Positions 19,430 through 64,000 of a DNA stretch of 64,000 nt are shown here, in pieces. The notes beneath the pieces are model-generated. The model saw only the letters and a program-made list of their open reading frames with translations. It made no database searches and had not been told where the DNA came from. Positions within the stretch are counted from its first letter, which is position 1; the number at the start of each line of letters is the position of its first letter. Made by a program: the position numbers and the translations under genes. The stretch spans positions 372,001 through 436,000 of the forward strand of contig OZ037844.1 in NCBI GenBank assembly GCA_964035575.1. The letters run 5' to 3'. Source of the DNA: Rhynchopus sp. YZ270_cl-10. Taxonomy: Eukaryota.

Positions 19430-20588
19430 GGCCAAATATGATCAGAGATGCCCCGCCAACGTGCGGAGCCGAAAGCTCGGAATGGGTTTTTGCCGCTGTA
19501 CACTGTAGTATACTACCTGAACTGAGTATGTGTATATCAGTGGCTGTCACGAAAGGTGTCAATTTCAGAATCCCAAAAAAAAAAGTCAAAAATTTTTTTT
19601 GAAAAGTACGTATTTGGGCTTAAATTTGCCCGCTGATTCCATTGGAGCAAGAATTTTGAACTTTTGAAAAAATCAAATTTAGTCAAATCCAAAAAAGCGG
19701 TTTTTGCCGAAAATCTTTTTGAAATCCCGGGATAGGAGCCTAATTTTCCGGAGCTGGAAACTGCGCGGATCTGCATTTCCGGAGTCCGCGCAAAAAAATG
19801 AAAAAAAAAATCGAGAAGATTAGTGGAGTAGAAGTTTAGTGGAAGGTGGTCCACTGGGTTTGGGCACTTTACTACTGTATTCCTATGGGTAAAAACCCGT
19901 TCAAAAGTGCGTATGTGGGCCACCATGTAAAAAAAAGTGGTGAGGGTGAGGCTTTTGTGTTGTTTGAGGGCTTCAAAACCTTATTCAGAGTCTTCTATGT
20001 AGTTTTTTTTTACAACTCGTTGTAAAACCACCTGAATATATGACCTAGGGAACCTACGACAAACGTGACCGACCCATTTTTTGCACCTTTCCACTGTATT
20101 CCGGAGCTGGGGGTGGTAACTCGCCTTGTTGCCCAAGGCAGACCAAGCCACCTCTCCTTTGGGACGTCAGCAGAAGACGCCAGGACCCAAGCACGCACGT
20201 ACTTCGGCAGCAACGCAATTTGCCAGCCATTCTCACAGCTGTCACGAAGCAACATCGCTCCAGCATTACCAGGACAGGTTCTGATTATGAGCCATTTTCC
20301 TTAGTGTTTTCCCCTATTAAAAGTAGTGAAAATTCGATTTTTGGGGGAGAGCCGACCATCCCACAGGAAAAAATGAGGTGCAAAAAATTTAACGCCCATT
20401 CTTTTGAAAATGTGCATGTGAGGAAAAATTCTAAACAGGTAACAGATGCTCAAAAGTGAAAAATTCTGGCGTTAATGGATCGCTAGGGTGGGTAAACTAC
20501 CCAATCCAAAAATTATCGAACAGATTCGTGTTCCAAAAAACCCAAAAAAAAATCCAAAAACCATAGGGTCCCCCCTATGGTTTTTATA

Positions 20589-21873
20589 CAGTACACAGTA
20601 CACAGTACACAGTACACAGTACACAGTACACAGTACACAGTACACAGTACACAGTACACAGTACACAGTACACAGTACACAGTACACAGTACACAGTACA
20701 CAGTACACAGTACACAGTACACAGTACACAGTACACAGTACACAGTACACAGTACACAGTACACAGTACACAGTACACAGTACACAGTACACAGTACACA
20801 GTACACAGTACACAGTACACAGTACACAGTACACAGTACACAGTACACAGTACACAGTACACAGTACACAGTACACAGTACACAGTACACAGTACACAGT
20901 ACACAGTACACAGTACACAGTACACAGTACACAGTACACAGTACACAGTACCCAGTACCCAGTACCCAGTACCCAGTACCCAGTACCCAGTACCCAGTAC
21001 CCAGTACCCAGTACCCAGTACCCAGTACCCAGTACCCAGTACCCAGTACCCAGTACCCAGTACCCAGTACCCAGTACCCAGTACCCAGTACCCAGTACCC
21101 AGTACCCAGTACCCAGTACCCAGTACCCAGTACCCAGTACCCAGTACCCAGTACCCAGTACCCAGTACCCAGTACCCAGTACCCAGTACCCAGTACCCAG
21201 TACCCAGTACCCAGTACCCAGTACCCAGTACCCAGTACCCAGTACAGTACAGTACAGTACAGTACAGTACAGTACAGTACAGTACAGTACAGTACAGTAC
21301 AGTACAGTACAGTACAGTACAGTACAGTACAGTACAGTACAGTACAGTACAGTACAGTACAGTACAGTACAGTACAGTACAGTACAGTACAGTACAGTAC
21401 AGTACAGTACAGTACAGTACAGTACAGTACAGTACAGTACAGTACAGTACAGTACAGTACAGTACAGTACAGTACAGTACAGTACAGTACAGTACAGTAC
21501 AGTACAGTACAGTACAGTACAGTACAGTACAGTACAGTACAGTACAGTACAGTACAGTACAGTACAGTACAGTACAGTACAGTACAGTACAGTACAGTAC
21601 AGTACAGTACAGTACAGTACAGTACAGTACAGTACAGTACAGTACAGTACAGTACAGTACAGTACAGTACAGTACAGTACAGTACAGTACAGTACAGTAC
21701 AGTACAGTACAGTACAGTACAGTACAGTACAGTACAGTACAGTACAGTACAGTACAGTACAGTACAGTACAGTACAGTACAGTACAGTACAGTACAGTAC
21801 AGTACAGTACAGTACAGTACAGTACAGTACAGTACAGTACAGTACAGTACAGTACAGTACAGTACAGTACAGT
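20589..21873. repeat. Compound satellite (CAGTACA)51-(CAGTACC)42-(CAGTA)126
   Basis: Blocks 20589-20945, 20946-21239 and 21240-21869; each appears perfectly homogeneous. Confidence 0.97.
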
Positions 21874-23379
21874 GCGATTCACATATCAGACAAGATCTCG
21901 TTAGGCGTATACTCTGGGCCTCGTTCACTTAATAAACCACAGATGCAAATTTTTGAGCCTACGACCCCGCATTTAACTCATTTCGATCCGCTGATTTCAA
22001 TCCCAAAAATATTTCAAAAAAATATTTCTGGTGTGGCAATAGTAAAGGGGGGTATGGATATTGGAAAACAGGCCTTCATATACGCCTAACGAGATTTTGG
22101 AAGATATATTCACAAAACTTTCACTACCGCTTCATAAAAATTCACAAAACCATGTGGCTGACGACCCCAAAATAGCACAGTGTGACAGAGTCTAAACAGC
22201 ATTGGTTCACTCATACGACCTGCACACCACACACGACACTGTTGTTGATGTGCACATTCTGCACAACTACGGCGAGGTCGTTGCGAAGCTGTACTGGGTG
22301 CAAGGCGCAGGGGTGCAGCTTTCACAGGCAAAGTTCTATGGGTAGTCCTGCATTGCGACTGTGACGGCATCAGCCGCGCTTATTTTTTCTTCTACAAGCT
22401 TGGTGTCAGGGATGAAACATTGCATGATTTTTCTCTACCTACCACCTCCCGTGCATGAGTCTGTGTATAAGTCCGATTTTTGGGCCCCCGGACTTATACA
22501 CCGGTTTGCGCACGCAGGAACCCAGACCCACGCAGTGGCACATTACCTCAGTAGTGACCCACACACGAGGGAATGTGACACAGCAAAAATTTTTCCCCCA
22601 GACCCTGTCTTCATGCACCTTCGGCACAACGCCGCAGGCAGGCCAAACAGCGTATAGAATTTGTTGTTTGTAAGCTACCCGCATGTTGAAGGGCCACATT
22701 TCGCCCTCCACTAATTGCTTTTGTTTTTGACTTATTTTTGCCCCCCCCCAAATGCACCGATATTACGACCGGCGTAATATCGGTCGGGCTGTATGAATTT
22801 TCATCACCACAAAACAAATTACCCCAAATCACCCCACACAAAATGAAAGTCAGTGTGGTGGAAGGGGGCTGGCTGCACTTTCCGCGCACATTTCCCATGT
22901 TGGCAGAAGAGAACATGGTCAATGATGTGTGGGGTAACATCTCCACCATTCCTCCGGGCTACCCCTCCAAAAACGCCCCACTTGTTCGTTGCTTTTCAGC
23001 CCAGAACCCTGTTTCTATTCACTTACCTGTACTGGTAAGATTGCCACTACAATTCGCACTCTATCCTCCCGCCCAATCGTCCACAACAAAAGTGCACACA
23101 AGCATCAAGACATGCGGAGACGAGCCGGTTACGTTTAACCCGATGCGTCCCACAGAATTTTTTGGGATTTCAAGGAAGTAGCGAGGTCAACAGGAATGCG
23201 GGGACGAGCCAGATAACGCAACCCGATAGCGGCGACAGATTGCGCCCGCGCGCACCCACCCCGCGAAGCGGGGTGGGTGCGTGCGGGCGCTGCGCAGCGA
23301 AGCCTTTGCGCGAAGCGCAAAGGCGAGCGGAGCCGGGGGGTCTGGGGGGCGGAGCCCCCCAGAAATTTTTTTTTAATAA

Positions 23380-29820: not shown

Positions 29821-31185
29821 TCATTCTTCTGCACCGTGCTTGAGGAGAACCTGCTCCACATCTGTATGTTGTTTCTCCCTCGCATGGTGCAATGCAGTGT
29901 GGCCCAAAAAATCCCTCTGGTTCACATCCACCTCCCGCAAGCCAACGAGATAGCGCACAGTCTCGGTGTGTCCAAAATACGCCGCATCGATAAGACACGT
30001 GTACCCATCGTCGTCCACCACACACACATCTGCACCTGCTTCCATCAACATCTGCACAATTTTTAGTTCCCCACCCTCACAAGCCCAGTGAAGAGATGTC
30101 CTTCCTTTACCAGACTTTGCCTCGATGTCTGCCCCTGCATCAATGAGCAACTTTGACACATCTGAGTGTTTCACTATCACTGCGAAGTGCAGTGGAGTGA
30201 CGCCCTCGGTATATGAGCCATTCACGTCCACCTCAGGCATGCACAGAAGAGTACGCATAGTCTCGGTGTGTCCCAAAGAAGCCGCACTGGTGAGACACGT
30301 ATGTCCCGTACTATCGGTGACACACACGTCAGCACCTGCTCTGACCAACATCTTCACAAACTGGGGATTCCCACGATAGCTCGCCTCAAGGAGTGGCGAA
30401 TGTCCGTCGGTGTACTTAACCTCAATGTCTGCCCCTGCATCAATGAGCACCTGCATCACATCTGCATGGTTTCGAAATACTGCACCGAACATCGCAGACA
30501 AGTGGTCCTCAGCTTTGTGATTCAGGTCCCCACTCTTCAAACCCACAAGATAGCGCACAGTCTCGGTGTGTCCATGATATGCCGCAAAAATAAGACATGT
30601 GTTTCCTTTGTTGCACGTACCACACACTCCCGCACCTGCTGCCACCAAAAATTTCGCAACTGCGAGTGCTCCTGAACGACAAGCAAAGTGCAGAGCCGAA
30701 CGTCCCATGTCGTCCTTTGTCTCGATGTCTGCCCCTGCATCAATGAGCACCTGACACACTGCAGGGTCCTCCCACATGGCTGGACAGGGTCGGTCTTTGA
30801 TGTCCTCCTGCCCGTGTGGGACAAACGCAACGTTGCTGCAGACAGACTTCCAATGCTGCAAGAGGACCTCCGTGCACGCAGTGTGGTCTGCGTGGACGCA
30901 CTCACTCAGTAGCATCCCGAAGCCCATCTGCGTTGTCTCAACATACGGAAGAAGCAGTGCGAGGCATTCATCGTGGTTCCCTCTGCATGCCTCGTGCACA
31001 GCATCGAAGGCAACCGTTTTGCTGTCTGTGTCTGGGCTGAGCTTCTCAAGTCCCGCCCGCACGGCAGTTGTGTCGCCGTTCCTGGCAGCCTCCACCAAGA
31101 CCTCGTCTGCAGAAAGCTTTCTTCTCTTTGGTGCCTTCTCGTCAGGTGTGCTGTCTGCGTGTTGTTTCGACGAGGTGAGACCCAT
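29821..31185 (-). CDS. Ankyrin-repeat protein, copy 5 (3 modules; rearranged 5' end)
   Basis: The family ATG is lost; the nearest in-frame ATG is at 31185 (MGLTSSKQHAD...). Confidence 0.85.
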   Translation of the reverse strand: MGLTSSKQHADSTPDEKAPKRRKLSADEVLVEAARNGDTTAVRAGLEKLSPDTDSKTVAFDAVHEACRGNHDECLALLLPYVETTQMGFGMLLSECVHADHTACTEVLLQHWKSVCSNVAFVPHGQEDIKDRPCPAMWEDPAVCQVLIDAGADIETKDDMGRSALHFACRSGALAVAKFLVAAGAGVCGTCNKGNTCLIFAAYHGHTETVRYLVGLKSGDLNHKAEDHLSAMFGAVFRNHADVMQVLIDAGADIEVKYTDGHSPLLEASYRGNPQFVKMLVRAGADVCVTDSTGHTCLTSAASLGHTETMRTLLCMPEVDVNGSYTEGVTPLHFAVIVKHSDVSKLLIDAGADIEAKSGKGRTSLHWACEGGELKIVQMLMEAGADVCVVDDDGYTCLIDAAYFGHTETVRYLVGLREVDVNQRDFLGHTALHHAREKQHTDVEQVLLKHGAEE

Positions 31186-32024
31186 GGAGTAAATGGTCAA
31201 GCTGACGTGAGTCCTGGAGGTGAGGAGGTGAGGGAGGGTGCGTGCGAGATAAAAACATCACCCAGTCTTTGTTCATGTTCATAATGTATTTGCGCACCCA
31301 GTGGAAAAAATCGCTTTGAAAAAAGATACCTTCTTGTGTACCCTCTTTTACGAACAGTGTCATATGGAGCTTTGTGGGGTTGTGAAGACCAGATCATACC
31401 TTCGTAAGAAGGTCTGGAGCTTTGGTAACAACAGAAAATTATTACGCCTCCACTCGACGTTTGGATAAAGAAAACTAGAGATGAAAGAGGGTTTGGGGGA
31501 AGAGTTTAATTTGGCCTTGATTGTTAGGAATTCTTGAACGCATCCCCACACTCAGTCACACCTTTGATACATGACCGGTGCACTGGGTGGATCCCAACAA
31601 TGCAATCCTACATCCATTTCGAGAAAAAGCGAATACATAAAAAGCGTGGGGTTTTAAAGAAAGGTTGAAGAGTGCACAGAGGCACATTTTTTAAAAGGGT
31701 AAATCCTCTCTTCATCACCCCCCTTGTGAAAGGGGAATTCGAGAGTCTTCCTACATTTGATAGCTACGTTGCAATTTGACGCCTTTTCTGCCAAACATAT
31801 ATGACTATTGTAATTTGGATTTATTGCAGCGGCGCAGACAGGTCTTCACTGTCCAAAAAAGCAAGACCCCAAAAAATCTGCCACTTACACAGTGTACAAA
31901 AGGGACGCAAGGAAAGGGGTCCTTGGGGTGTCTTCGCATGGACTTACAGCGTCGCTTACTGGAAGATAGCAGTTGGTAGAGATGGTCTTGGGTTGGGGGG
32001 GGGGGGGGGGAAAGGTTTGCCTCT

Positions 32025-35000
32025 TTACCTTCTCATTTGATGCTTGAGTATGGCCCTTTCTTCTGCCTCTTCTGTAAGGACATCTGCCCTTGCTTGCGAG
32101 CACCCCACGACCACCCACACCGCGGCACTGTGCTCCGGGTCTGCAAAGGCCTCTGACAGCGTGAGGACGGTGTTCGCAACCGCGACCCCTTTGAGACCAC
32201 GCAGGCGGAGCACCCCGGCACTCCCCCCGACCACGGTGTTGTGCTCCTGGCGGAGGCGAGCGCATTCACGCAGCGACTCATCTGAGGCGGCCCTAAGCGA
32301 GGTTGCTGTGTTGTGCGCAAGGAGCAGCACCTCTCTGCGTGCCATGCGCTCCTCCGGGAACAGTGCTGCGCAAGGGTGGTCGGTGTCCGTGGTGTGTGGT
32401 GGTGGTGGCAGTGGTGGTGGTTGCAGTGCAGGAGATGTGGAGGTGAGCATGGCACCCCACACCTCTGCCCGCGCACCCCCCTCCTCCCGCAGAAGCAGAC
32501 GTCTCTCGACGTTCATCGCGCGCACCACGCAGAGACGCTCCTGGTGGAATTCTTCGAAGCGGCGCCGCTCGACACTCTTGGCAGGACGGCGTACGCATTT
32601 GCCTACTGTGGCTGCGGCGAAGTCGGCTTCTTCAAATGCAATAAGTTCCTGCAGGTCTTGCTGTTTTTTTTTGTGGGTTTTTTTTTTGTGGTTTTTGTGG
32701 TGCATACCTCCTTCCGCAGACGAATCCGCTGTGTGTACAAAAATATTGCGCGTCTGCGTGCAGCGTACCTGCGATAGGCTCGTTGCAGCAGCGCTGCGGC
32801 CGCACTGTCGCTGTCATAGAAGTGCATGGCCTCGTGGAGGTCCGCGGCACGTTGTTCGCTGTGGTGTGCGAAGAGGGCGTGCCGTACAGTGCGTTGTGCC
32901 TGGGTAACGCGGAGGAAGCGTTGCAGAGTGCACGCTGCGTTGGCCTCAGCCACGCTCGCAAGCTCTGACCGGTAGCGTGCAACCAGCGTGCCTGCGCGAG
33001 GCCGCGTCACCCCCGCATGCAACAACGTTGCATCGCACGCCACCCTCGCCCTCGCCCACCGCTGCACCATCTCAGCACACCGCCCCTTCTCCCTCCCACA
33101 CGCCACCTGCAAAGCGTCCTCCATAAGAAACGTACGCAACGCTGGTCCACATGCTTCAAAGCACACAGCCCACAGCAACGTTGTACATGGTCTTTCGCGT
33201 TGGATAAAGTCTGCTTCGGGATGAGTCTCCTCCTGTGGGTTTTTGATAAAATAGAAAAATTAAATTCTAGAATTTCAGGCAAAAAAAAAATGCTTCCACG
33301 GTTCCAGAAAATTTGGAATAAGTCTCCTCTTGGAAAATACTTCAAAATAAAAAAATATTCCATTATTTTGAAGGGTTTTTTCATACCTCCTCACGAATCA
33401 ACCAGAAAAGCTTGTTAAGATATGTTGTCGGATACGCTGCGAACGACGCTGTCACTGAAACAGGACATTCCGACTTCGCGACTGAATAGATTTGCCTTAG
33501 ACCCCTCCAATGCCGACTACGAGGCGGCTCTGCCATGACGTCGGGCTCCGCAATGCGCATCACTGCATTCAGGTGGGCGAGCGGTACACTCTCCTCAACA
33601 CCATAAAGACGCGCATCCTCTTGTGCCTGCGTCGAAGCCTCTGCTGAGGTGGCGTGCCCTGTACTCCTCCGCATTAGCAGTTCATAACGCAACCTTGCGT
33701 CTCTTTTTTGCGCCACCAACACATCGTCTGCCGCACCCCTACACAGCATCATCATCGGGTATTTCTCTTCGTCTCCAGCGATGACCTTCCCCAAAAGAAT
33801 TATTTTTGCAAACCCTGCCTCCTCGCTTGTTAGAGACAGCACCCTTTCCAACGAATGTCTATCCGTTGAGTTCAGCGTTCCTCCATCTTGAAGATACCGC
33901 AGCTCCGTTTTCATAATTTCATCGTCAGTGAGAGGCCGTTCTTTGCCTCCAAATGGGTAGTTTGTGATGTCCAACGGAAATGCTTTGTTAGGTACCGGTT
34001 GCTTCGATGCAGCGAATGATTGAAGACGTTGCAGATAACATTGCATCCTATGCGCCTCAAGGGAGCGAGGTCGGAGAAATCCTAAAGAAAACTGAAGGGT
34101 GCGTGCGATAGCAGAGTCATCTGTGTGATGCACAACTGCCTCAGATTTGTCATCAGTTTTCTCTCCAAATTCTACCAAAGAGCTGCCAACAAAATGATAC
34201 TTTTCCAAAAAGGGTGTGCTAGCAGCAGAAACAAAACGAACCTTTTCCAACCCAAGCCTGCACAACACCGACACCATCCTCTTTGTTGTAACCGAACCCA
34301 ATCCCCTCGGAATTATATCATGCGTTGTTACATATGAATTCACCGAAATCCTCTGTAAAATGCTCTTATCGACATCAGATTCTACGTGAAAAACCTTTGG
34401 TGCGCCGTAAGAATATACTCCAGAGAGCTTCCCACATAAATCCTTCTTATAAGAAAGGAATACACCCAGCAATACCGCGCACGCTCCTCCCATGCTGTGC
34501 CCACAGAGACTGATTTCTAAAGGCTTTCCCACCTCCGTTCTGTATCTCTCCAACACAGGAAGCGTTTCCTTCAACAAAACCGAGGCCCCATTGTGAAAGC
34601 CTTCGTGGCACCTCATTGTAGTCCGAATTGGGTTGTTGAGAAACGGTGGGTGGAGCCGGGTTGGGGTGTACTGTGCGTCCCGGAACATGTCATATGTGTT
34701 TTGTGTCCCAGCAATGCAAATTGTGACCTGGCAGCGTTCCTTGAGCCCACCGTTTTGTGCCAGAATGAGCCACCCTGGGGTGGTTTGGGGCTCGTAGTTT
34801 TCTTCTTCTCTTCCGGAGGTGATTTTTGCAAGGTACTCCTCGTATTGCGTTTTTAGCGCGATGCTCCCAGCATCTAGGAGAGTCTGAAGCCCTGCTACTC
34901 CATTTTTCAATCGTGTAGATGCGGGTCTCATTTCCTTCTTCTCGGTCGCCCTTTGCGCGCCCCAGAGATATTTCAATCCGAAAAACCCGGCATTCTTTTC

Positions 35001-49287: not shown

Positions 49288-51353
49288 TTACTGGGTGGTG
49301 TCACACCCCAAGCATGTACCTCGTAAGTAGACGTACTTGGTGACTCCTTTTGGCGGAAGAACGTCTTCAAGTGCAGACGGCAGTGTTGTCCCTTCAGGAG
49401 GCTCGTACAGACACACAACCCCGTCACGCACAGCTTCCTCGCACAGCGCCCAACTCCGACGCACAACATCCCCCATCACAGTCACAAAGCGCTGGCTCCG
49501 TGCACCGACATCCCCGTGCTGCACAAGGCCGGTTGCAAGCCCAGCCCCGTTCAGCGCAAACTTCGCAGACATGCGCTGCACAAACCGTATCGCATTCTCC
49601 ATGTGTGCAGGTGCAGAACGCGACACGTTCCACCCAACACAAACACAGTTCCCAAGCAGCGTCACCAGACTCCCTCCACTCTGCTCCAGTGCCGTCGTCA
49701 GTGTAGTGAGTCGTGAGCTCATGTGGTGAAAGGCGATGTTTTGTCCCACGTCACCAACTGCAAGCTGTGCAACTCCCAGTGTGCCGGAGGTCTGACGTGT
49801 GGAGACTGCAAGGATGGTTGTGGATGCAACAGACGACGCGTATGTGGAATGACTCATTGTACGATTGGCAGTTGGTGAAAAAGACGCACAAAGTGGTGTT
49901 TCCCTTCGTCCCCCAAGTGAGACAGGCCACACACAGCACACCAGCGTGCTCCCAGACACACCCTTCAAGTGAACTGCCTCTGGCACACCAGCAACAGCAC
50001 TGCACGACTCAGAGACAGATGTCCACAGGTCAGAGGGCAAAGCCACAGCACCAGGCGTGCATGTGCTCTCAAGGCGTGATGCATCGTTCACTGTGTGTCC
50101 GAAGTAGTCTGTCCGTCCCGTCAGTGTGTTCTGCTCCACAGTCACAGGGCCAGTGTTCACACCAATGCGCACAGTCAGACCGCCCCACAACAACCCCTGA
50201 CGAGAACAGATGGGTGCATCCTCGAGCAGAGATGCAGGCCAGTCTGCTTCAAACAGACGCTCCTGCACACGTAACCCAAACGCCACACCGTCGCAAGTGG
50301 ATGCAAAGGCAATCATGAATGCGTCGCCAATGGTCTTCACCTCGTACCCACCACATCCGCATCACCTCACGCATCACAGCATTGTGGATCTGCAGTCCAG
50401 CACGCATCCCCTCAGGTGCAATCTCCCAGATCGACGTTGACGCACGGATGTCTGTGAACACAATCGTTGCTGTCTCGCTGTCAAGCCCAGGCGGTGCCAC
50501 AGTCGGCTGCTGCACACCGTCCTCATCCACCTCAAACAGCGCAGCAGGGAGGTACGGACGGTACTTCCGCAGGTTCTCCTCCAAGTTCCGCAGTGCCGCT
50601 GTCATCCCCTCAGGCAGGTCACCCTCATGCGCCTTCAGCAGCTCCGCCACCTGCTCCACGTCGTAGCCAGCAAGGAGTGCTGCAATTTCCTGCACAGCGT
50701 TGATCGTCCGCTCCATTGATGCCTGCTCCTTCAGGAGGCCACGCGCAAAGCCTCGGGTTGCGATGAAGTCGATGACAAACACACTCACGGCAACGAAGTG
50801 GAAGCTCAATCCTCTCTCGGGGCACGGGAGGTCTGCGCACTGCAGTGCTTCATCCCTGTAGGCTGCCCTCTCCTCCTGCGGCAGGATGCCAGGGATGTCG
50901 AGGATGCCGAACCTGAACACTCCTTCCACACCCATGACAACGAAGTACACCACTGCGGCACAGACATGCTATGCTGTAGCGTGCGGGCACCTCCATCACA
51001 AGGAGGAAGTCCACCACAAGCACGAGCAACGGCCATGCAGTGTTCCCTGTAGCACGGGCAGTGACGTCAGCACCAAAAGCTGTAAGAGTGTAGATGAAGG
51101 CGATGAACACTATTGCTGGTGTGGTCAGCTTGACTTTGCAGAGCACTGACATAGTAGCGTAGATCGCAGTGCAGATTGTAGCCATAGATGTGGTGCAATA
51201 GAAGTACCGTCCTCGTGGGTCAACCCACACCTCCCAAATGCCAGTCATCATCAACAAGACGGCAACATTAATGACGAGGAACATAGTCTGTTTCTGTGTG
51301 GCCTTCTTATCGAGTGTCCCATCCAGCGACAGCACAGCAGCCAGACAGCGCAT
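49288..51353 (-). pseudogene. Multi-TM class III adenylate cyclase paralog with two frameshifts and a 3' deletion
   Basis: Three consecutive ORFs are colinear with 54845-56917. Each frameshift (50966, 50353) lacks 2 nt. About 192 bp (paralog 54722-54913) is absent. Confidence 0.85.
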
Positions 51354-51517
51354 TGTGTTTCGTGTGTTCTTGTGGACAGAGCCGTATCTTATACAGACAC
51401 CTTACTCCAAGCCCTCTGTGTAAAATGTGATTGTCCTGAACCGCGCCGGTGCATGACCGGTGCACCGGGGTGGACCACACCATGCAGTCCTACACTTCGT
51501 GGTTTGCGTCTGTGTAA

Positions 51518-51776
51518 CTAATACAGACTGAAATGATCGGCTCCTTCGGATCGAATGATTGGAATAGTGTGTGTGTTCGGAAATAAATACCGTCTCTTTT
51601 GTGTAGTGTTTTATGTTCATTGTTTCCCTTTCATTGTCCTTTGCTTGTGCTCCCCGACTCCAATTCAATCAATACTCACATAGGGGGGCCAAAAAATACA
51701 ATTAGTGTTTCTCGTTCCTCATCGACGCGAAAAGGCGCGCACAGCACCGTACAGGGCCGAATCCCTTTTTTTGTGG
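51518..51776 (+). repeat. Diverged copy of the retroelement direct-repeat core, upstream of the cyclase pseudogene
   Basis: TAATACAGAC...TCGAATGATTGGAAT...CCTTTGCTTGTGCTCCCCGACTCCAATTCAA matches 57820-58010; near-identical to 57325-57566. Confidence 0.8.
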
Positions 51777-54844: not shown

Positions 54845-56917
54845 CTAAAACACTTTGTCGCGTTCCCTATTGTCCTGTGTCTCAAGCACCCGGTAACAAC
54901 CCTTGTGTCGCACAAGAACGTCTTCAAGTGCAGACGGCAGTGTTGTCCCTTCAGGAGGCTCGTACAGACACACAACCCCGTCACGCACAGCTTCCTCGCA
55001 CAGCGCCCAACTCCGACGCACAACATCCCCCATCACAGTCACAAAGCGCTGGCTCCGTGCACCGACATCCCCGTGCTGCACAAGGCCGGTTGCAAGCCCA
55101 GCCCCGTTCAGCGCAAACTTCGCAGACATGCGCTGCACAAACCGTATCGCATTCTCCATGTGTGCAGGTGCAGAACGCGACACGTTCCACCCAACACAAA
55201 CACAGTTCCCAAGCAGCGTCACCAGACTCCCTCCACTCTGCTCCAGTGCCGTCGTCAGTGTAGTGAGTCGTGAGCTCATGTGGTGAAAGGCGATGTTTTG
55301 TCCCACGTCACCAACTGCAAGCTGTGCAACTCCCAGTGTGCCGGAGGTCTGACGTGTGACTACAGATGACGCGTATGTGGAATGACTCGTGGTACGATTG
55401 GCAGTTGGTGAAAAAGATGCATAAAGTGGTGTTTCTCTTCGTCCCCCAAGTGAGACAGGCCACACACAGCACACCAGCGTGCTCCCAGACACACCCTTCA
55501 AGTGAACTGCCTCTGGCACACCAGCAACAGCACTGCACGACTCAGAGACAGATCTCCACAGGTCAAAGGGCACAGCCACAGCACCAGGCGTGCATGTGCT
55601 CTCAAGGCGTGATGCAACGTTCACTGTGTGTCCGAAGTAGTCTGTCCGTCCCGTCAGTGTGTTCTGCTCTACCGTCACAGGGCCGCTGTTCACACCAATG
55701 CGCACAGTCAGTCCACCCCACAGGTCGCCACGTTCAGCACAGATCGGCACCTCCATCAACGACGCAGGCCAGTCCGCAGCACGGAGCATCTCGTGCACAT
55801 TCAGCCCAAAGTCAACACCTTCTTGCGTGGTCTCGAAGGCAACCATGAAGGCGTCACCGATTGTCTTCACCTCGTAGCCACTAAACGTCTGCATCGCAGT
55901 CCGCATCACCGAGTTGTGGATCCACAGCCCATCCCGCATCCCGTCAGGTGCGTCTTCCCAGATCGACGTGGACGAGCGGATGTCTGTGAACACCACCGTC
56001 ACTGCCTCGCTGTGCGCACCAGGTGCTGCCACAACGCTCTGGACAGACATCTGGTCGTCTCTGTCGAACAGCGCAGCAGGGAGGTAGGGGCGGTAACGTC
56101 GCAGGTTCAGCTCCATCGTCTCGAGTGTTGCAAGCATCTCAGGGGGCAGCAGCGCCTTGCGTGCATCCAGCATGCGTGCCACACCGTCCACGTCGTACTT
56201 CGCCAGCAGCGCTGTGATCTCCTGCACTGCACTGATGGTGCGCTGCATGGCCGCCTGCTCCTTCATCACTGTCGTAGCAAACCCTCGTGTGATGATATAG
56301 TCCATCAAAAACACCATCAAGGTCGCGGCTAGGTTGTTTGGCGGGAAGGACACAGGGCAGGGCAGAGTGTCGCACGCCAGCATGTCCTCGAAGTACTCAC
56401 GCCTCACCTCCTGCGTGCCAAAACCTGGAATGTCAAGAAGCCCAAAACGGAAGCTCTCCTCGACTGCGACTGTCACGAGATACACCACTGTGAAGGCCAC
56501 CAACCCGAAGGTGTACTTCGTGGGCAGCTGCAGCACCAGCATGAGGTCTATCACGACCACGAGCATCGGCCATCCTGGGTTTCCTATTGTCCTCCCACCA
56601 AGGTCGTACACGAACACGCCAAATGCCTGGCCATAAAGCACGGTTGCAACAAGCGGAACGGGCATCTCCTTCTTGAAAAGCACCAAGTATACAAAAACAG
56701 AATTTAATATCATGAACACCGCACTCGACACGTAAAAGGACGGCACATCCTTCGCCGTCTCGAAGATGGAAAAAAGAAACAGTACAAGCCCAACTAGCGC
56801 AATGGTCGAAGAAGCAAGAATGATTTTGCGGCCCGACCGTGCTTGTTTCCCCAGCGTCCCGTCCACTGAGATGATGTTCTGAAGCCAATCCATGCTCGCC
56901 ATCTTCATCTTCGCCAT
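54845..56917 (-). CDS. Membrane-bound class III adenylate cyclase with a degenerate second cyclase-like domain
   Basis: About 6 hydrophobic helices; FTDIRSST, VKTIGDAFM, VRIGVN, DYFGHTVNVASRLE (metal Asp pair, ATP-selecting Lys/Asp, Asn/Arg). The C-terminal repeat lacks these residues. Confidence 0.9.
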   Translation of the reverse strand: MAKMKMASMDWLQNIISVDGTLGKQARSGRKIILASSTIALVGLVLFLFSIFETAKDVPSFYVSSAVFMILNSVFVYLVLFKKEMPVPLVATVLYGQAFGVFVYDLGGRTIGNPGWPMLVVVIDLMLVLQLPTKYTFGLVAFTVVYLVTVAVEESFRFGLLDIPGFGTQEVRREYFEDMLACDTLPCPVSFPPNNLAATLMVFLMDYIITRGFATTVMKEQAAMQRTISAVQEITALLAKYDVDGVARMLDARKALLPPEMLATLETMELNLRRYRPYLPAALFDRDDQMSVQSVVAAPGAHSEAVTVVFTDIRSSTSIWEDAPDGMRDGLWIHNSVMRTAMQTFSGYEVKTIGDAFMVAFETTQEGVDFGLNVHEMLRAADWPASLMEVPICAERGDLWGGLTVRIGVNSGPVTVEQNTLTGRTDYFGHTVNVASRLESTCTPGAVAVPFDLWRSVSESCSAVAGVPEAVHLKGVSGSTLVCCVWPVSLGGRRETPLYASFSPTANRTTSHSTYASSVVTRQTSGTLGVAQLAVGDVGQNIAFHHMSSRLTTLTTALEQSGGSLVTLLGNCVCVGWNVSRSAPAHMENAIRFVQRMSAKFALNGAGLATGLVQHGDVGARSQRFVTVMGDVVRRSWALCEEAVRDGVVCLYEPPEGTTLPSALEDVLVRHKGCYRVLETQDNRERDKVF

Positions 56918-57324
56918 GTGGTTGTGTTCCTCCCTAGTTGGGGTGGGGGTGTATCAAAAGGGGTGGGGAAGCGTAGGACTCATCAGACATCTTCTTTGCT
57001 GTCTGCGACACGCATGCTCGGACACCTTCGTCGCCACTCATCAGCAACGAAGGCTGAAGGGTGTTGACATTAGTATCAGGTGCCCACAGGGAGAGACAGA
57101 AACGACACCTTCGTGAGTTCACAATATTATGAAAACCTTTCATTTGTTCGAGCATGCAATACGTTGATGAAGTAAGGGGTACAGAGAGAGAGAGAGGTAC
57201 AAGAGAGATCAAGAACGTTGACTTGAGATACACAGCCTCTCGTGGCATTGTTTTGCTAAAGAAGGCGTGAAGGATGAATGTCCTCACTGACGCAGACTTA
57301 TTTTGCACGTGAACAGTTGACCTC

Positions 57325-57566
57325 TTTCGGATCGAATGATTGGAATAGTGTGTGTGTGTGTGTGTGTGTGTGTTCGGAAATAAATACCGTCTCTTTTGTG
57401 TAGTGTTTTATGTTCATTGTTTCCCTTTCATTGTCCTTTGCTTGTGCTCCCCGACTCCAATTCAATCAATACTCACATAGGGGGGCCAAAAAATACAATT
57501 AGTGTTTCTCGTTCCTCATCGACGCGAAAAGGCGCGCACAGCACCGTACAGGGCCGAATCCCATTT
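57325..57566 (+). repeat. Diverged copy of the direct-repeat core with expanded (GT)n, upstream of the cyclase gene
   Basis: Near-identical to 51545-51776. Confidence 0.8.
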
Positions 57567-57773
57567 TTTTTTTGGGGGGGTCAGTGTTTCCCAGCATCTC
57601 ACCTAACTCTGAAAATAGGTGAGATTTTGCGGTTTTGCGGGTTTTTGAAAAGGTGTGGCGAGCCCGGGCGCGCTTCGCGCGCCCGGGTCCCCACCTTAGC
57701 TCAAGTTGGGGGCCTCCGGCCAGGGGTCCTAAGAGTGGTAACTTTTACCACTTCTGAAGTGACCTTTTTTATT

Positions 57774-58014
57774 TTTTTGTATACAACAGACGAAGCGGTA
57801 CGCGTACGGTTGTAAAGAAATAATACAGACCGAAATGTTTGGGCGTCTTCGGTTCGAATGATTGGAATTGTGTGTGTAGTTCAGACATAAATACTGGCTC
57901 TTCTATCTTGTTCTTTTATTCATTGTTTTCCTTTCATTGCCCTTTGCTTGTGCTCCCCGACTCCAATTCAACCAACACTTACAGAGGGGGGTCAAAAAGT
58001 TATTAGCGTTTTTC

Positions 58015-58047
<33 letters not shown>
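57774..58047 (+). repeat. Left direct repeat (245 bp + about 29 A), abutting the ORF1 ATG
   Basis: 57774-58018 reads identical to 63636-63880. Confidence 0.95.
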
Positions 58048-58050
<3 letters not shown>

Positions 58051-60672
58051 CCGTTTGAGGGCAGATCCAGAGACACTTTTGTTTTGGATGAGGTGGACTG
58101 GGTGAGCGCTAGACCTTTGCCTATTCCGGCGCAGCCCGCTCTCCTTCAACATGGTTGCGTCTTCCCCTCATGCCCCGTCGCACATACCTCGCAGTATTGC
58201 TGGATCTGCGGATACGGCGCCCATCAGCAGTGTGTCAAGGATAAGCTCCCCACGCAAGCCATCGCCGCCGCTTTTCTCGTCAATTACCACACCGGTGAGT
58301 TTACCTGCCCTGTATGCGCCTGGGTGGACGAGGAGCCGGCCGATGTAGACCCTGTTGCGAACCTGCCTCAGCCGCCACTACACCAGGATCCTGAGCCTAT
58401 TCCGCAGGGGGACCCGATTCAGGACCAGCCGCAGCCTCAGTTGGCACAGCTCATTGCACAGCTCATCGCACAGCAGCAGGACCAGCCGCCACCGCAGCTA
58501 CCCGTACCGCAGGAACAGCAGCAGCCAGGGCACGTGGCGCAGCATCCGCAGCCGCCTGTGCTCCCGGCGCAGCATCCCGTACATCAAAACCAGCAGCAGC
58601 CAGGGCACGTGGCGCAGCATCAGCAGCCGCCTGTGCTCCCGGCGCAGCATCCCGTACATCAGAACCAGCAGCAGCCAGGGCACGTGGCGCAGCATCCGCA
58701 GCCGCCTGTGCTCCCGGCGCAGCATCCCGTACATCAAAACCAGCAGCAGCCAGGGCACGTGGCGCAGCATCCGCAGCCGCCTGTGCTCCCGGCGCAGCAT
58801 CCCGTACATCAAAACCAGCAGCAGCCAGGGCACGTGGCGCAGCATCAGCAGCCGCCTGTGCTCCCGGCGCAGCATCCCGTACATCAGAACCAGCAGCAGC
58901 CAGGGCACGTGGCGCAGCATCCGCAGCCGCCTGTGCTCCCGGCGCAGCATCCCGTACATCAAAACCAGCAGCAGCCAGGGCACGTGGCGCAGCATCCGCA
59001 GCCGCCTGTGCTCCCGGCGCAGCATCCCGTACATCAAAACCAGCAGCAGCCAGGGCACGTGGCGCAGCATCAGCAGCCGCCTGTGCTCCCGGCGCAGCAT
59101 CCCGTACATCAGAACCAGCAGCAGCCAGGGCACGTGGCGCAGCATCCGCAGCCGCCTGTGCTCCCGGCGCAGCATCCCGTACATCAAAACCAGCAGCAGC
59201 CAGGGCACGTGGCGCAGCATCAGCAGCCGCCTGTGCTCCCGGCGCAGCATCCCGTACATCAGAACCAGCAGCAGCCAGGGCACGTGGCGCAGCATCCGCA
59301 GCCGCCTGTGCTCCCGGCGCAGCTCCCAGGACAGCCGAATCAGCAGCCGCCTCCGCAGATGGCGCAGCTTCCTGCCCAAGGTCTCGCGCAGGCCATCGCG
59401 CAGCTACTCGGGCCTCACGCGGCCCCCCCGCCGGGTCCGCAGCAGCAGCAGCAGCAGCAGCAGCAGCCGGCACAGCTGATCGCGCAGCTCCTGGCCCTAC
59501 CGGCCCAACAGCCCCCTCCTGCCCAGCAAGCCCAGCCGCCGGCCCCGGGCGCGGCTCAGCAGCAGGGGGTCCCTCAGCAGGCGCAAGCCGTGCCCCAGCT
59601 TGATGCGCTGGCGCCGATCCTGCAGCAACTCTTGGCTCCGCAGCTGGCCCTACAAAACGTCATCCGGGACGTGGCCCAGCTGCGGAGCCAAGCCGGTATG
59701 GCCCTCCCCCACAATTTTAACCCCTTTTGTGCCATTGATTGGCGTCCCTTCCTCCACAACCCACAGAAGATCGACGTACTTCGCTGGAAGCTGAAGGAGG
59801 AAGGCGGCGCACCCGCGGTTGCCTTGCGCTCCCTCCCTGCCGCCGCTAGCGCAGAAGATTGTGCCCTCGCACAAGCGCACGACAGAGTGCACGCCACTCT
59901 CTCGGGAATGCGCCGCGAGGACCCCCCCGCCAACGACGACCGCTTGTCCGACCTCCACCAACTGCTCACTTGGGCATATCGGTGTTTGTTGGTCAAGAAG
60001 TATGATCTCGCAACGGGACATGCTTACCTTGTGCTGGCACTCGAGAAGGATTGGCAATCCTTTTCGAAGGGCCACCAGGCACGCTACTCCGACCAGGCCA
60101 TACGGACTGGGAAGGACGCGGCCCTGGATCGCAAGGACCGGTTTCGAGGGTCGCGGGGGTCGGGGAACAAGCGAGAGAGGGATACCGATAGGGAGCAGGG
60201 AAAGGGGGGGAAGCAGGGGGGGAAGCAGGGGGGGAAGCAGGGGGGGAAGCAGGGGGGGAAGCAGGGGGGGAAGCAGGGGGGGAAGCAGGGGGGGAAGCAG
60301 GGGGGGAAGCAGGGGGGGAAGCAGGGGGGGAAGCAGGGGGGGAAGCAGGGGGGGAAGCAGGGGGGGAAGCAGGGGGGGAAGCAGGGGGGGAAGCAGGGGG
60401 GGAAGCAGGGGGGGAAGCAGGGGGGGAAGCAGGGGGGGAAGCAGGGGGGGAAGCAGGGGGGGAAGCAGGGGGGGAAGCAGGGGGGGAAGCAGGGGGGGAA
60501 GCAGGGGGGGAAGCAGGGGGGGAAGCAGGGGGGGAAGCAGGGGGGGAAGCAGGGGGGGAAGCAGGGGGGGAAGCAGGGGGGGAAGCAGGGGGGGAAGCAG
60601 GGGGGGAAGCAGGGGGGGAAGCAGGGGGGGAAGCAGGGGGGGAAGCAGGGGACAAAACCTGCGACGCAATGA
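58048..60672 (+). CDS. ORF1, Gag-like protein with N-terminal PHD-like Cys/His finger, Q/P repeats and (GGKQ)37
   Basis: 874 aa; C-x4-C...CxxC-x4-H-xx-C...CxxC; first ORF of the element. Confidence 0.75.
58517..59322 (+). repeat. 75-bp (25-aa) coding tandem repeat, about 10.7 units
   Basis: [10 protein letters not shown](P/Q)[14 protein letters not shown] with alternating variants. Confidence 0.95.
60205..60648 (+). repeat. (GGGGGGAAGCAG) x 37 coding repeat
   Basis: 444 bp read directly; encodes GGKQ. Confidence 0.95.
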
Positions 60673-60676
60673 CTAG

Positions 60677-61663
60677 GGTCCGCTCTTCCGAGCAACTCTC
60701 ATCAAGATTCTTTTTACTCTCACCTTCTTTTTCCCCCCCCCCTCCAAGTGGGGACGTTCCCGTCAGGTAGTAGCGTCTTTGGGAACTTTTCAGAGGGAAC
60801 AGATCGAGGCCTCTCTCAGGGAAACCCTCGTTCAGTCCCTCGCCCCGTCCACCCAGTCCTCGATGCAGAGTGTTTTACGCACATACCTGCAATTCAAGGA
60901 AAACTGGGAGTGGGCGACGGGCCAGTCCCTGGAACACGCGGTGGCGGTACTCTTGTTTGCAGAAAAGAAGCGGGGAGAGGGGGCAAAAAAGTCCACAGTC
61001 CTTCAGTATACCATGTCCCTAGCGGGTGCACTGAAGAGGCTGGATGGAGACCTGATTTCCCACTCCCAGCTCGTACAAGATTATCGCCAGGCCCTCAAAA
61101 GAGGCGGCGCATTGCTCTCGGAGCGCCAGGCGAAACCTGCCCTGTTTTCACAGGTGCAGACAGTTCTGGATCGGCTTCCGATGGGGGTGCTCCGTCTCGC
61201 CATTGCTTTGTGTTGGGCGGGGGCGGCTCGTGCGTCGGACGTGCTGCGCTTGAGAAGGTCGGAGCTAGTGATTCGGTCGGACTCGTCGATCCAGGTGCAC
61301 TGGACAAAGACGAAGTCCGATCCTTATCAACTAGGTCGCTTCTCGGGAGTGGTGCTCCGTCCTCAAGAGACCCGTCTTCTTTTTGTTCACCTCTCCTCCC
61401 TCACCCCCCAACAACAACTTTTCCCTTTTTCTCTAACGACAAAGGTCATCTCGGACGAGTTGAAGAAGACCTGCCCGGCGCTCACGTCCCACTCTCTCAG
61501 AAGGGGGGCGGTGCAGCACCTGGTGGGCCGGAATGTGGACCTCGAGATGATTCGCCAGCTCACCCGTCACGCGGACGTGAACTCCGTCGTGCGTTATGCG
61601 CACGAGGCGGGGGGTTCGGTCGCGGCGAGTTCGGCGGAAACATCGCGACTCCTCCTATCCTAA
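60677..61663 (+). CDS. Tyrosine recombinase (start uncertain; frame open from 60677)
   Basis: N-domain SLAPST...Y..F; catalytic R (AARASDV), K (TKTKSD), HSLRRG, H (TRHAD), Y (VVRY). Confidence 0.92.
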   Translation, partial: GPLFRATLIKILFTLTFFFPPPSKWGRSRQVVASLGTFQREQIEASLRETLVQSLAPSTQSSMQSVLRTYLQFKENWEWATGQSLEHAVAVLLFAEKKRGEGAKKSTVLQYTMSLAGALKRLDGDLISHSQLVQDYRQALKRGGALLSERQAKPALFSQVQTVLDRLPMGVLRLAIALCWAGAARASDVLRLRRSELVIRSDSSIQVHWTKTKSDPYQLGRFSGVVLRPQETRLLFVHLSSLTPQQQLFPFSLTTKVISDELKKTCPALTSHSLRRGAVQHLVGRNVDLEMIRQLTRHADVNSVVRYAHEAGGSVAASSAETSRLLLS

Positions 61664-63393
61664 ATCCCGCTTTCCCCTCCCCTTTATTTACACCGTGTTC
61701 TCAAAGCTTGTTTACTAATCCTTCTTTTTATTCTGCTCCATTTTCTCCTTCCCCCCCTCCCTTTTCTGTGTCTACGTGTGAGGAAGAAGACTACGGGCCG
61801 GGCCTCGACTCGCTATATGATTCTGTTTGTGTGGTTAAGATTCATAAGTCGAGTGTCAGGGCCCCGGCTGTGGTTAGCCTTTCTGAGAAGCTTGCACCCA
61901 TTTGTTCCTCCTTTCTGCATTTGGATAGAGTGAAAGAACTGGACAGAGAAGGTGAGCTCAAAGGGATTTTAGATCTTATTACTGATCCCAAATGTTTTTA
62001 CTCAGCCTTCAGACCGGGGTCTCTGGACCTCATTTTTTCCAACCCCAGTGTTTTTTCGTCGTCTATCTCCAGAAACATGGCACACCATCTGGACAGGTTA
62101 TTGGAATACGGGGTTGTTAAACGTGTGTCAGCTCGTCAAACAGTGGTATTGCACGCATTCACCGTACCTAAGAAATCTGCGGGTGTTCGTTTTGTCGCAG
62201 ATGGGCGTAAATTGAATAAGTTAATGTACCGGCCTCCTGAGATGCTTCTTCCGAAGATACCTCAGGTGATCGACAGAGTTCTGGAGTCTTCCTGGGCAGT
62301 ACTTGCGGACGGCAAAAGTTGGTTTTACCAATTTGGCCTACACGAGGAAATCCAGGCTTTTTTCGGTATCAATCTGGGTCATCAGAGAGGAGATTTCATC
62401 CAAACCAGACTCATTGCTATGTGCATGGGGTGGTCTTTCGCACCTTGTATTGCTCACCGCACTGCGAGGGTGCTCCTCCCTGATGACTCGGGTGTTACCT
62501 GGGTGGACAACTTCATTGTTTTAGATAAGTCTCGCGAGGCTGTTACTTTTTCGTTTTCTCAGTTTTTAGCACGTTGTAAACACGTGAATGCTGTGCTAAA
62601 CTTAGAAGATGAGTTTTACGGTGAACCGTTGCAAGTTTTTTGTGCCTTAGGAATTGAGTTTGATTTGGTGAATCACCGTTTTCGCGCTGAGCACAAGTGG
62701 GTCACCAAGTTGTTAAACTGTGAGGAATGGGAAAAGGTCAAGTCAAATTCTTGCACTATTCGCCAATTTTTCAAAGTTTTTGGTTCTTTGGTGTGGAACT
62801 CTTATTCTGTTCGTTCACCCCTTTGCTACCTTCCATCTTCCCTTTCTTTTATCCGTGATGTGGCGCGGACCACTACCCAGTCACCCGAGGCGTGGGACTT
62901 ACCCCTCGATGTCAGGAGCTCTACCCTCGCCGAGCTCTCACTCCGTATGAGCGAAGTAGAGGTGAACAATTGGCAAGGGAAGCGTCCGACACAGGAGGTA
63001 ACTGTGTGGTCTGATGCGTCTCAGGAAGGGTGGGCGGCGGTTTTCGAAGGTGAGAAGGAAACGGTCGCTCAGGGTCTGTTTACAGAGAACCCCGAGTGGC
63101 ATATTTATATTAAAGAAATTTTTGCGGCGGCTAAAGCCATCCAACTTACCGCTTCCATGTTTAATAATAAAAAAGTTTTGTTGATGGTTGACAACATGGC
63201 TGCTGTGTACAGCATTCAACGGGGCCATTCGTCCAACTTCATCTCAAATACACTCTTGGCCAAATTATTTCGAATCGCTGAAGAAGCGAATTTGTATATC
63301 GTGTGCACTTGGGTATCTACTCTGGTTCAGAAGGCGGATCCCTTTTCACGGGATTCGAAAGCCAAGGATCCTATTTTATTGGATGAGTTGTAA
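60748..63393 (+). CDS. Reverse transcriptase-RNase H (DIRS/VIPER-type); frame continuous with ORF1 through a single TGA
   Basis: RT motifs FTVPKK, RFVADGRKLN, ADGKSWFYQF, MCMGWSFAP, WVDNF, LGIEFD. RNase H motifs WSDAS, HIYIKEIFA, MVDN, KADPFSR. Confidence 0.92.
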   Translation: MGTFPSGSSVFGNFSEGTDRGLSQGNPRSVPRPVHPVLDAECFTHIPAIQGKLGVGDGPVPGTRGGGTLVCRKEAGRGGKKVHSPSVYHVPSGCTEEAGWRPDFPLPARTRLSPGPQKRRRIALGAPGETCPVFTGADSSGSASDGGAPSRHCFVLGGGGSCVGRAALEKVGASDSVGLVDPGALDKDEVRSLSTRSLLGSGAPSSRDPSSFCSPLLPHPPTTTFPFFSNDKGHLGRVEEDLPGAHVPLSQKGGGAAPGGPECGPRDDSPAHPSRGRELRRALCARGGGFGRGEFGGNIATPPILNPAFPSPLFTPCSQSLFTNPSFYSAPFSPSPPPFSVSTCEEEDYGPGLDSLYDSVCVVKIHKSSVRAPAVVSLSEKLAPICSSFLHLDRVKELDREGELKGILDLITDPKCFYSAFRPGSLDLIFSNPSVFSSSISRNMAHHLDRLLEYGVVKRVSARQTVVLHAFTVPKKSAGVRFVADGRKLNKLMYRPPEMLLPKIPQVIDRVLESSWAVLADGKSWFYQFGLHEEIQAFFGINLGHQRGDFIQTRLIAMCMGWSFAPCIAHRTARVLLPDDSGVTWVDNFIVLDKSREAVTFSFSQFLARCKHVNAVLNLEDEFYGEPLQVFCALGIEFDLVNHRFRAEHKWVTKLLNCEEWEKVKSNSCTIRQFFKVFGSLVWNSYSVRSPLCYLPSSLSFIRDVARTTTQSPEAWDLPLDVRSSTLAELSLRMSEVEVNNWQGKRPTQEVTVWSDASQEGWAAVFEGEKETVAQGLFTENPEWHIYIKEIFAAAKAIQLTASMFNNKKVLLMVDNMAAVYSIQRGHSSNFISNTLLAKLFRIAEEANLYIVCTWVSTLVQKADPFSRDSKAKDPILLDEL

Positions 63394-63635
63394 TTCTTTT
63401 TACGGACTGGTTGGTCTTTATTTGTATAACAGTTTCGCACCGTTTTGTATCTCCACCTTAATTCTTCTAATTCGTTTCGTCTATTCCCGTTAAATTTGTT
63501 GTGGGAACTTGTCTGTAAGAATTGTTTTTCTGTTTATCTGTTCGCGTGGCGTCCCTCAGGGTCCTTAGGGTCCTGGAGGATGCGTCCAATGAAAATCACG
63601 TCGTGTAGAAGAGTTCAAGAATGTAGGTTTTATTA

Positions 63636-63897
63636 TTTTTGTATACAACAGACGAAGCGGTACGCGTACGGTTGTAAAGAAATAATACAGACCGAAATGT
63701 TTGGGCGTCTTCGGTTCGAATGATTGGAATTGTGTGTGTAGTTCAGACATAAATACTGGCTCTTCTATCTTGTTCTTTTATTCATTGTTTTCCTTTCATT
63801 GCCCTTTGCTTGTGCTCCCCGACTCCAATTCAACCAACACTTACAGAGGGGGGTCAAAAAGTTATTAGCGTTTTTCATTTAAAAAAAAAAAAAAAAA
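63636..63897 (+). repeat. Right direct repeat (245 bp + A17)
   Basis: Identical to the left repeat. Confidence 0.95.
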
Positions 63898-64000
63898 GAA
63901 GGAAAAGAGATAATTGGCGTTATTGTTGTTATTGGGATTTACAGTCTCACATTGTCTTTTTCGTTCGTTGTTCTATTTAGACACGTTGGGCCTAATGCGC

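Follow-up and report, generated by a model that had tools for sequence, protein, structure and literature searches.

A tyrosine recombinase gene nested in the pol frame of a VIPER-like retroelement, and a possible three-way switch at the end of gag

According to the coordinates in Additional file 3 of PMC6681497, the retroelement VIPER of Trypanosoma cruzi has an ORF1 at 1–1341, an ORF2 at 1342–2359 and an ORF3 that starts from 1218, and the part of PMC5146736 that deals with the element gives the same ORF pattern. The sources differ on this point, as Viper is described as usually free of overlaps in the relevant part of PMC3266345, unlike in the corresponding parts of PMC5146736 and PMC12278014. 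TATE-like ORFs have been noted in Diplonema papillatum in a section of PMC10161547. In the VIPER and DIRS literature that we examined, the overlap between the tyrosine recombinase (YR) and reverse transcriptase (RT) genes is drawn and not explained. We found no proposal of readthrough or programmed frameshifting for VIPER or TATE in the literature searched; Lorenzi 2006 and the reviews by Poulter and Goodwin may discuss them. The layout described below is already published for VIPER, and the signals for double recoding are apparently undescribed.

The window, i.e. the whole stretch of 64,000 nucleotides that was analyzed, contains a 6.1 kb element (57766–63911) bounded by 284-nt direct terminal repeats. 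Three ORFs, gag-like, YR and RT/RNase H (RT/RH), follow each other in this order, and those for YR and RT/RH overlap. The inverted terminal repeats with internal complementary regions that define DIRS1-like elements were not found: the terminal repeats are direct, and the only inverted pair in the element is 20 nt long and lies within gag. Ngaro-like elements have the YR downstream of RT/RH, while it is located upstream of the RT here. By its layout and its W-x-D-N motif, compared by eye, the element resembles VIPER; the tree built from the loci contained no named VIPER or TATE. ORF1 is presumably gag-like, judging from its position, and has a Cys-rich N-terminus, a 75-nt tandem repeat and a 12-nt G-rich repeat. 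The 5′ terminal repeat (A1) has a pyrimidine tract inside, and its 3′ A run provides the gag ATG. VIPER-like elements have split direct repeats in the pattern A1 ... B1-A2-B2. Both A1 and A2 are present; no B2 repeat was seen in the 89 nt left 3′ of A2 before the window ends at 64000. A search against Rfam gave no matches in the window. The features are collected in Table 1.

Table 1. Position and basis of the features of the element (positions in the window).
Feature	Position	Strand	Basis or remark
A1, 5′ terminal direct repeat	57766..58049	+	97% identical to 63628-63911
gag-like ORF1, 874 codons, stop TGA 60670-72	58048..60672	+	ORF list, repeat search
GTGAGT donor-like site, gag phase 1	58295..58300	+	Motif scan; not common to relatives
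G_GGA_AAG, candidate frameshift site	60198..60204	+	Only slippery-type heptamer in gag frame after ATG
G7-containing 12-nt repeat, exact in 37 units	60203..60651	+	Open in all three + frames
Junction: ATG overlapping gag TGA, then CTAG	60669..60676	+	ATG in pol frame in family
pol frame, 906 aa	60673..63393	+	ORF list; YR wholly inside, at +1 to pol
Tyrosine recombinase (YR) ORF, 328 aa	60677..61663	+	Pfam PF00589, E=1.4e-08
Pyrimidine tract and AG, acceptor-like	60706..60748	+	Absent from second subfamily
C run, sets YR and pol phase relative to gag	60733..60742	+	10 C in window, 9 C in family
Second pyrimidine tract	61665..61770	+	Between YR stop and conserved RT N-terminus
A2, 3′ terminal direct repeat, also dispersed high-copy short repeat	63628..63911	+	Repeat comparison, contig depth

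The terminal repeat is also dispersed in a SIRE-like manner (63578–63911, 57766–58049, 57326–57513, and 51516–51716). Its summed contig depth is ~30,000–35,000 vs. ~1,200 in the element interior, and many differing flanks join it at 63578. With its pyrimidine tract it may provide splice signals. Large tandem repeats are found in gag at 58343–59542 and 60203–60651 of the window as well as in the proteins P0016, P0017, P0028, and P0057, and in several related families the repeats that precede the YR overlap do not interrupt the pol frame, as would be expected if it were entered upstream of these repeats. Elsewhere in the window, at least seven ORFs on the minus strand between 7415 and 53469 start with a near-identical stretch and represent a tandem gene family. 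A long array of short repeats at ~20500–21930 is open in several frames on both strands, and genes for membrane-type adenylate/guanylate cyclases are found at 54845–56953 (−; PF00211) and 49291–50361 (−).

The YR has a Cre-like fold (Foldseek E 5.7e-11), and its catalytic R/H/R/H/Y residues are invariant in 14 aligned sequences. An earlier note on this DNA had placed the YR frame wholly inside the pol frame, and this holds in the window sequence. It was also right that the first ATG of the YR frame (60863) comes after the SLAPST motif, and this ATG is a poor start. It corresponds to residue 29 of the YR model, and a start there would remove 28 residues including the helix at 3–20, which aligns with the relatives (pLDDT 66–78 in that part of the model). 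The pol protein has a leader of ~370 codons that overlaps the YR, followed by the RT with a WVDN motif and then the RNase H; Pfam found no domain at all in it. A methyltransferase domain is absent as judged from length and alignment, with pol stopping just after the RNase H region. There is no usable Pol AUG after the junction: the next pol-frame ATG (62077) lies ~95 codons into the conserved region. One relative (L007) has no pol-frame ATG for 551 codons.

The named RT relatives are from D. papillatum, D. ambulator and Flectonema neradi, which makes a diplonemid the likely host. Only bacterial clusters were returned by an ESM Atlas search with the cyclase that neighbors the element. No named VIPER was among the matches of a protein search with the YR alignment, and a motif look-up for the Pol of T. 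cruzi VIPER returned none in the protein set searched. Three D. papillatum gene models (P0053, P0088, and P0198) combine the gag, YR and RT of a related element in a single protein; they disagree with each other at the joins, which are probably automatic introns. A related RT filed under a Nitrospira MAG (P0032) is probably eukaryotic contamination.

Relatives were obtained by a scan of metagenome contigs, which gave 15 loci from 138 stretches with RTs that are 25–36% identical; genome contigs (0/10 stretches) and viral contigs (0/74 stretches) gave none. Over the YR, the pol frame of the window has no stops where 7.2–10.8 are expected, and it was open in 0 of 2000 shuffles under either null. 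The same trend was seen in the relatives. In the window and in all eight loci of the stop test, pol is at −1 to the YR and has no stops across it, with 5–15 expected from synonymous shuffles (P ≤ 0.0015 in each case); in the +1 control frame there are 11–24 stops, which is near expectation. This test left out L001 (YR cut), L002 and L007 (near duplicates) and L004, L012, L013, and L015 (no YR domain found). At synonymous sites where a T would create a pol-frame stop, T was carried at 0 of 418, with ~103 expected. The earlier note took stops accumulating in the pol frame of homologous copies as the sign of an accidental overlap; we looked for them in the relatives and found none. Third-position changes between L006 and L007 number 15 in 311 codons of the YR, 51 in 480 codons of the RT and 81 in 233 codons of gag.

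The RT proteins point in the same direction. Among 184 of them, 63 (duplicates included) have at least 270 residues before the RT, and in 37 of these the +1 frame allows for two YR motifs spaced as expected. The mean score of the YR motif was 81, compared to 56 in the other frame and 70 in shuffles, and 22 proteins exceed the best control. The double openness of YR and pol is real and selected, not a product of chance. Since pol-frame stops are avoided and the long RT N-termini are compatible with a YR, ribosomes most likely traverse the YR in the pol frame.

Nine C are found in the family where the window has ten, and this shifts YR and pol to other frames with respect to gag. Read contigs from five of eight runs (X1, X4, X5, X6, and X7) were compared with the window, and the C run is covered by the first three of them. 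Here, a one-base gap at 60733 accounts for a depth of 1202.9 out of 1202.9 in X4, 1007.1 out of 2209.2 in X1 and 2925.7 out of 4911.6 in X5, and ten C occur in none of the contigs listed for these three runs. Contigs drop rare variants, although variants at ~0.5–1% of the depth do appear elsewhere among the contigs listed. With a rule of 31 bridging letters, only record 11 of X4 (253 nt) fully bridges the C run among the contigs listed; the other large contig of X1 begins at 60729 with one mismatch and, in our reading, also fits nine C. X1 and X5 belong to one study, which may be the source of the assembly, while X4 is from a second study. Another assembled contig, a sister copy (P0218), encodes a 907-aa Pol that runs unbroken from the equivalent of AUG 60669 through the RT to the RNase H, and it therefore needs nine C.

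With nine C, the gag frame past the UGA leads into the YR and the frame of AUG 60669 (−1) into pol; the remaining +1 frame is closed. The earlier note had the YR open after the TAG at 60674–60676, which is correct for the window copy; in the family, however, the YR lies directly behind the gag UGA as an extension of the gag frame, starting from 60673. Similarly, the ATG at 60669 over the gag TGA does run into the TAG at 60768 in this copy, whereas it leads into pol in the family, where the pol frame comes from this AUG or from further upstream in the −1 frame. Two of the routes to the YR that had been suggested, a frameshift after readthrough and a restart at the AUGA with a subsequent −1 shift, fail for the family, having been derived from a copy in which one C is surplus: a ribosome that has read through the UGA would already be in the frame of the family YR, and AUG 60669 leads to Pol without any shift. 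The tenth C is presumably an assembly error or a copy-specific mutation, and it would disable the normal entry to both YR and Pol. As read from the contigs, the junction of the window is not representative of the family, and its apparent mechanism is reversed by one extra base. More generally, when only one assembled copy is read, a single homopolymer base is enough to turn its apparent mechanism around.

A second subfamily was seen at a depth of ~160 vs. 1200 in X1 and X4. It keeps the 16 nt from the UGA on and lacks 58 nt including the pyrimidine tract. Its readthrough frame is closed after five codons, and it has CUG at the place of AUG 60669. Because of an extra base near 60953 and many indels in pol (at least ten), this subfamily is likely decayed and says little about the phase.

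The gag stop is visible in 11 of the 15 relatives. Six loci have the YR in frame after it (L001, L006, L007, L008, L011, and L014). The contigs of L004 and L005 stop short of the YR domain, which makes their frame assignment indirect; both fit the same phase. A clade of three loci (L002, L003, and L009), sister to L004/L006/L008 (support 98/100), instead has pol in frame with gag and the YR at +1. Overall, gag and YR share a frame with pol at −1 in five of six clades and in T. cruzi. Donor-like GTAAG sites lie at or just before the gag stop in the exceptional clade (L002:2875–2888, L003:953–966, and L009 near 385–403), where the YR may be reached by splicing or by a +1 shift. The contigs of L001, L002, L004, L005, and L012 are circularly permuted (RT, gag, YR), which suggests tandem arrays or circular DNA.

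Junction signals were counted in seven loci, with L006/L007 counted once, which correspond to only four clades. In all seven, the start of the open −1 frame falls in the interval from 34 codons before to 3 codons after the gag stop, and no stop interrupts this frame as far as the first YR AUG (joint P 3e-5). The same is true of the gag/YR frame (7/7 loci, joint P 2e-4). A strict slippery heptamer is present at most 10 codons upstream of the stop in four of the seven loci (L001, L005, L011, and L014) and three of the four clades, compared to a background of 8 in 2180 positions (p=5e-5), and a loose one in six; the 10-codon window and the heptamer classes were picked after the data had been seen. 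The heptamers of L005 and L011 sit at the same codon but are built on GGG and CCC, respectively. In L006/L007 there is no slippery heptamer, and the −1 frame opens only after the gag stop. Nor does the window have one in the 10 codons next to its gag stop.

At the gag stop itself, UGA-CUN is found in the window and in five of the seven loci, and the in-frame ORF behind the stop is open in all seven. L005 (UAG GAC), L014 (UGA UGG) and T. cruzi (UGA AUG) do not have UGA-C. RNA structure after the stop gave z values from −2.4 to +1.05 against shuffles (−1.4 to −1.7 for the window); a conserved stem after the gag stop is unsupported across the loci, with a strong hairpin in L008 only. The AUGA overlap was also considered as a conserved signal and rejected, as it occurs in 3 of 9 lineages, which is about chance.

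From the family layout, the avoidance of pol-frame stops and the UGA-CUN contexts and heptamers of the relatives, we infer that the junction is a site of ribosomal recoding. One RNA would give Gag by termination at the UGA, a Gag-YR fusion by UGA-CUN readthrough, which requires no frameshift in the family phase, and Gag-Pol by a −1 slip shortly before the stop, after which the ribosome would cross the whole YR gene in the other frame. The chances that this proposal is right or wrong seem to us evenly balanced. In the family, the slip might take place at G_GGA_AAG (60198) or within the G7 repeats that follow, and AUG 60669 might be a second entry. The −1 frame around the heptamer is open from 60192, and a G-quadruplex is predicted for the repeats. 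If these are disregarded, the heptamer comes to lie ~8 codons from the stop, similar to the 7 codons seen for L005 and L011. As it stands, the heptamer is 156 codons upstream of the gag stop and of a weak type, with G as the last base; this distance and weakness, the missing heptamer in L006/L007 and the other phase of L002/L003/L009 count against the model. That VIPER-like elements from diplonemids to T. cruzi in general might switch among these three outcomes where gag ends, by means of two recoding events confined to ~30 nt, is a bolder suggestion that we hold to be somewhat less probable than its opposite. If true, one RNA would set the ratio of Gag, Gag-Pol and Gag-recombinase, the ~330 codons kept open in two frames would be explained, and a retroelement using readthrough and −1 frameshifting at a single junction would be added to those known.

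Splicing might instead produce the YR, and perhaps also Pol, with the tract at 60706–60744 as a 3′ splice site for the SL in trans or for a cis donor at GTGAGT 58295. We consider this unlikely. The pyrimidine tracts are both present as described by the earlier note, with 20 of 20 pyrimidines ahead of the AAG at 60746–60748 and 28 of 30 ahead of the AG at 60747–60748. The CUGAC at the stop is also a branch-point consensus. The phase-1 GTGAGT donor, if spliced to the strong acceptor-like site with the AG at 60748, would lead into the pol frame, and if spliced to the TAGs at 60768–60773 (60770/60773), into the YR frame, for any length of the C run. A spliced YR message would also fit the YR-frame AUGs found 11–90 codons after the stop in all seven loci and the U-rich tracts in several of them. 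Six of the seven have their first AUG past the best tract and its AG in the YR frame, and the exceptional clade has GTAAG at the gag stop. In D. papillatum essentially all mRNAs are trans-spliced and cis introns are present, as stated in the consulted part of PMC10161547. On the other hand, there are no GTRAG sites in the gag of L004, L005, L006, and L014 and none common to L006/L007, and the tract scores no higher than sequences within gag in several loci. Trans-splicing at 60748 would leave Pol without an AUG until 62077, and the YR would have an AUG that truncates the protein. With an intron the phase would be free to vary, but the same phase recurs in five of six clades and T. cruzi. Splicing at the tract, the third route of the earlier note, remains a rival for the YR but leaves the open pol frame over the YR unexplained.

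Pol could also be made without a frameshift, by termination and reinitiation at the AUGA (AUG 60669), with the YR reached by readthrough or from a start of its own. This appears improbable to us, somewhat more so than splicing. The family AUG 60669 does open the 907-aa Pol, the window is without a strong slippery site near the stop, and both the AUGA of T. cruzi and the UGAUG of L014 are in the pol frame. However, such an AUG occurs in only 3 of 9 lineages, about what chance would give by our estimate (near 0.3 each); in the remaining lineages there is CUGA or nothing. A stop comes three codons later in L006/L007, and the second subfamily has CUG in place of the AUG.

It is very unlikely that the phase of the window is itself functional, with readthrough to Gag-Pol and a +1 shift to the YR, possibly switched by slippage between nine and ten C: the same phase is natural in L002/L003/L009, but ten C are absent from the contigs listed from the three runs that cover the place, and P0218 reads as nine C. 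An accidental overlap, with the RT translated from a start past the second tract, has next to no probability, since it is largely refuted by the 418 at-risk sites and the first pol-frame ATG past that tract would remove the conserved RT N-terminus, even though gene callers put the RT start near 61770 in most copies (P0012) and a passage of PMC5146736 mentions other possible starts for the ORF3 of T. cruzi VIPER.

The element with its putative readthrough and −1 frameshift most closely resembles VIPER of T. cruzi and other kinetoplastids in layout; VIPER belongs to the VIPER-like subgroup of the DIRS order of retrotransposons. Both have the order gag-YR-RT/RH with the YR directly after the gag stop and in frame with gag, and in both the RT/RH ORF is shifted to −1, being open already ahead of the gag stop and extending across the YR. 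In the T. cruzi sequence given in PMC6681497, an A_AAA_AAC can be seen by eye ten codons before the AUGA stop, with the YR AUG directly after it, and the W-x-D-N motif of the RT reads WIDN as compared to WVDN in the window. The packing of the junction, which the earlier note regarded as unusual, is thus found in T. cruzi VIPER as well, including the AUGA overlap. Another shared feature is a dispersed short repeat from the element ends, SIRE in the case of VIPER. The two differ in that T. cruzi VIPER has an AUG directly after the gag UGA whereas the family described here has UGA-CUAG and no usable YR AUG, in the large tandem repeats that gag has here, unlike in VIPER, and in the host, here likely a diplonemid.

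TATE elements of kinetoplastids share the gene order, the overlapped YR and RT/RH ORFs and the direct repeats, as described in the relevant section of PMC12278014. Their YR ORFs were aligned over 434–982 aa in the part of PMC6681497 concerned with them, while the YR here is ~300 aa. A long overlap of the YR and pol ORFs is reported for half of 28 DIRS1-like elements in the corresponding section of PMC3266345. Unlike in these, the catalytic domain itself is wholly overlapped here, lies upstream of the RT and is accompanied by direct repeats.

Both types of recoding have precedents in viruses, such as the −1 frameshift at retroviral gag-pol, the readthrough at gag-pol of MuLV, the UGA-CUA readthrough of alphaviruses and the double frameshift of MMTV and HTLV. 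The slippery heptamers that shortly precede the gag stop in relatives, and the leaky UGA-C context, are like these viral signals. Unlike in the viruses, both events would act at one stop region and would select between two enzymes encoded over the same DNA.
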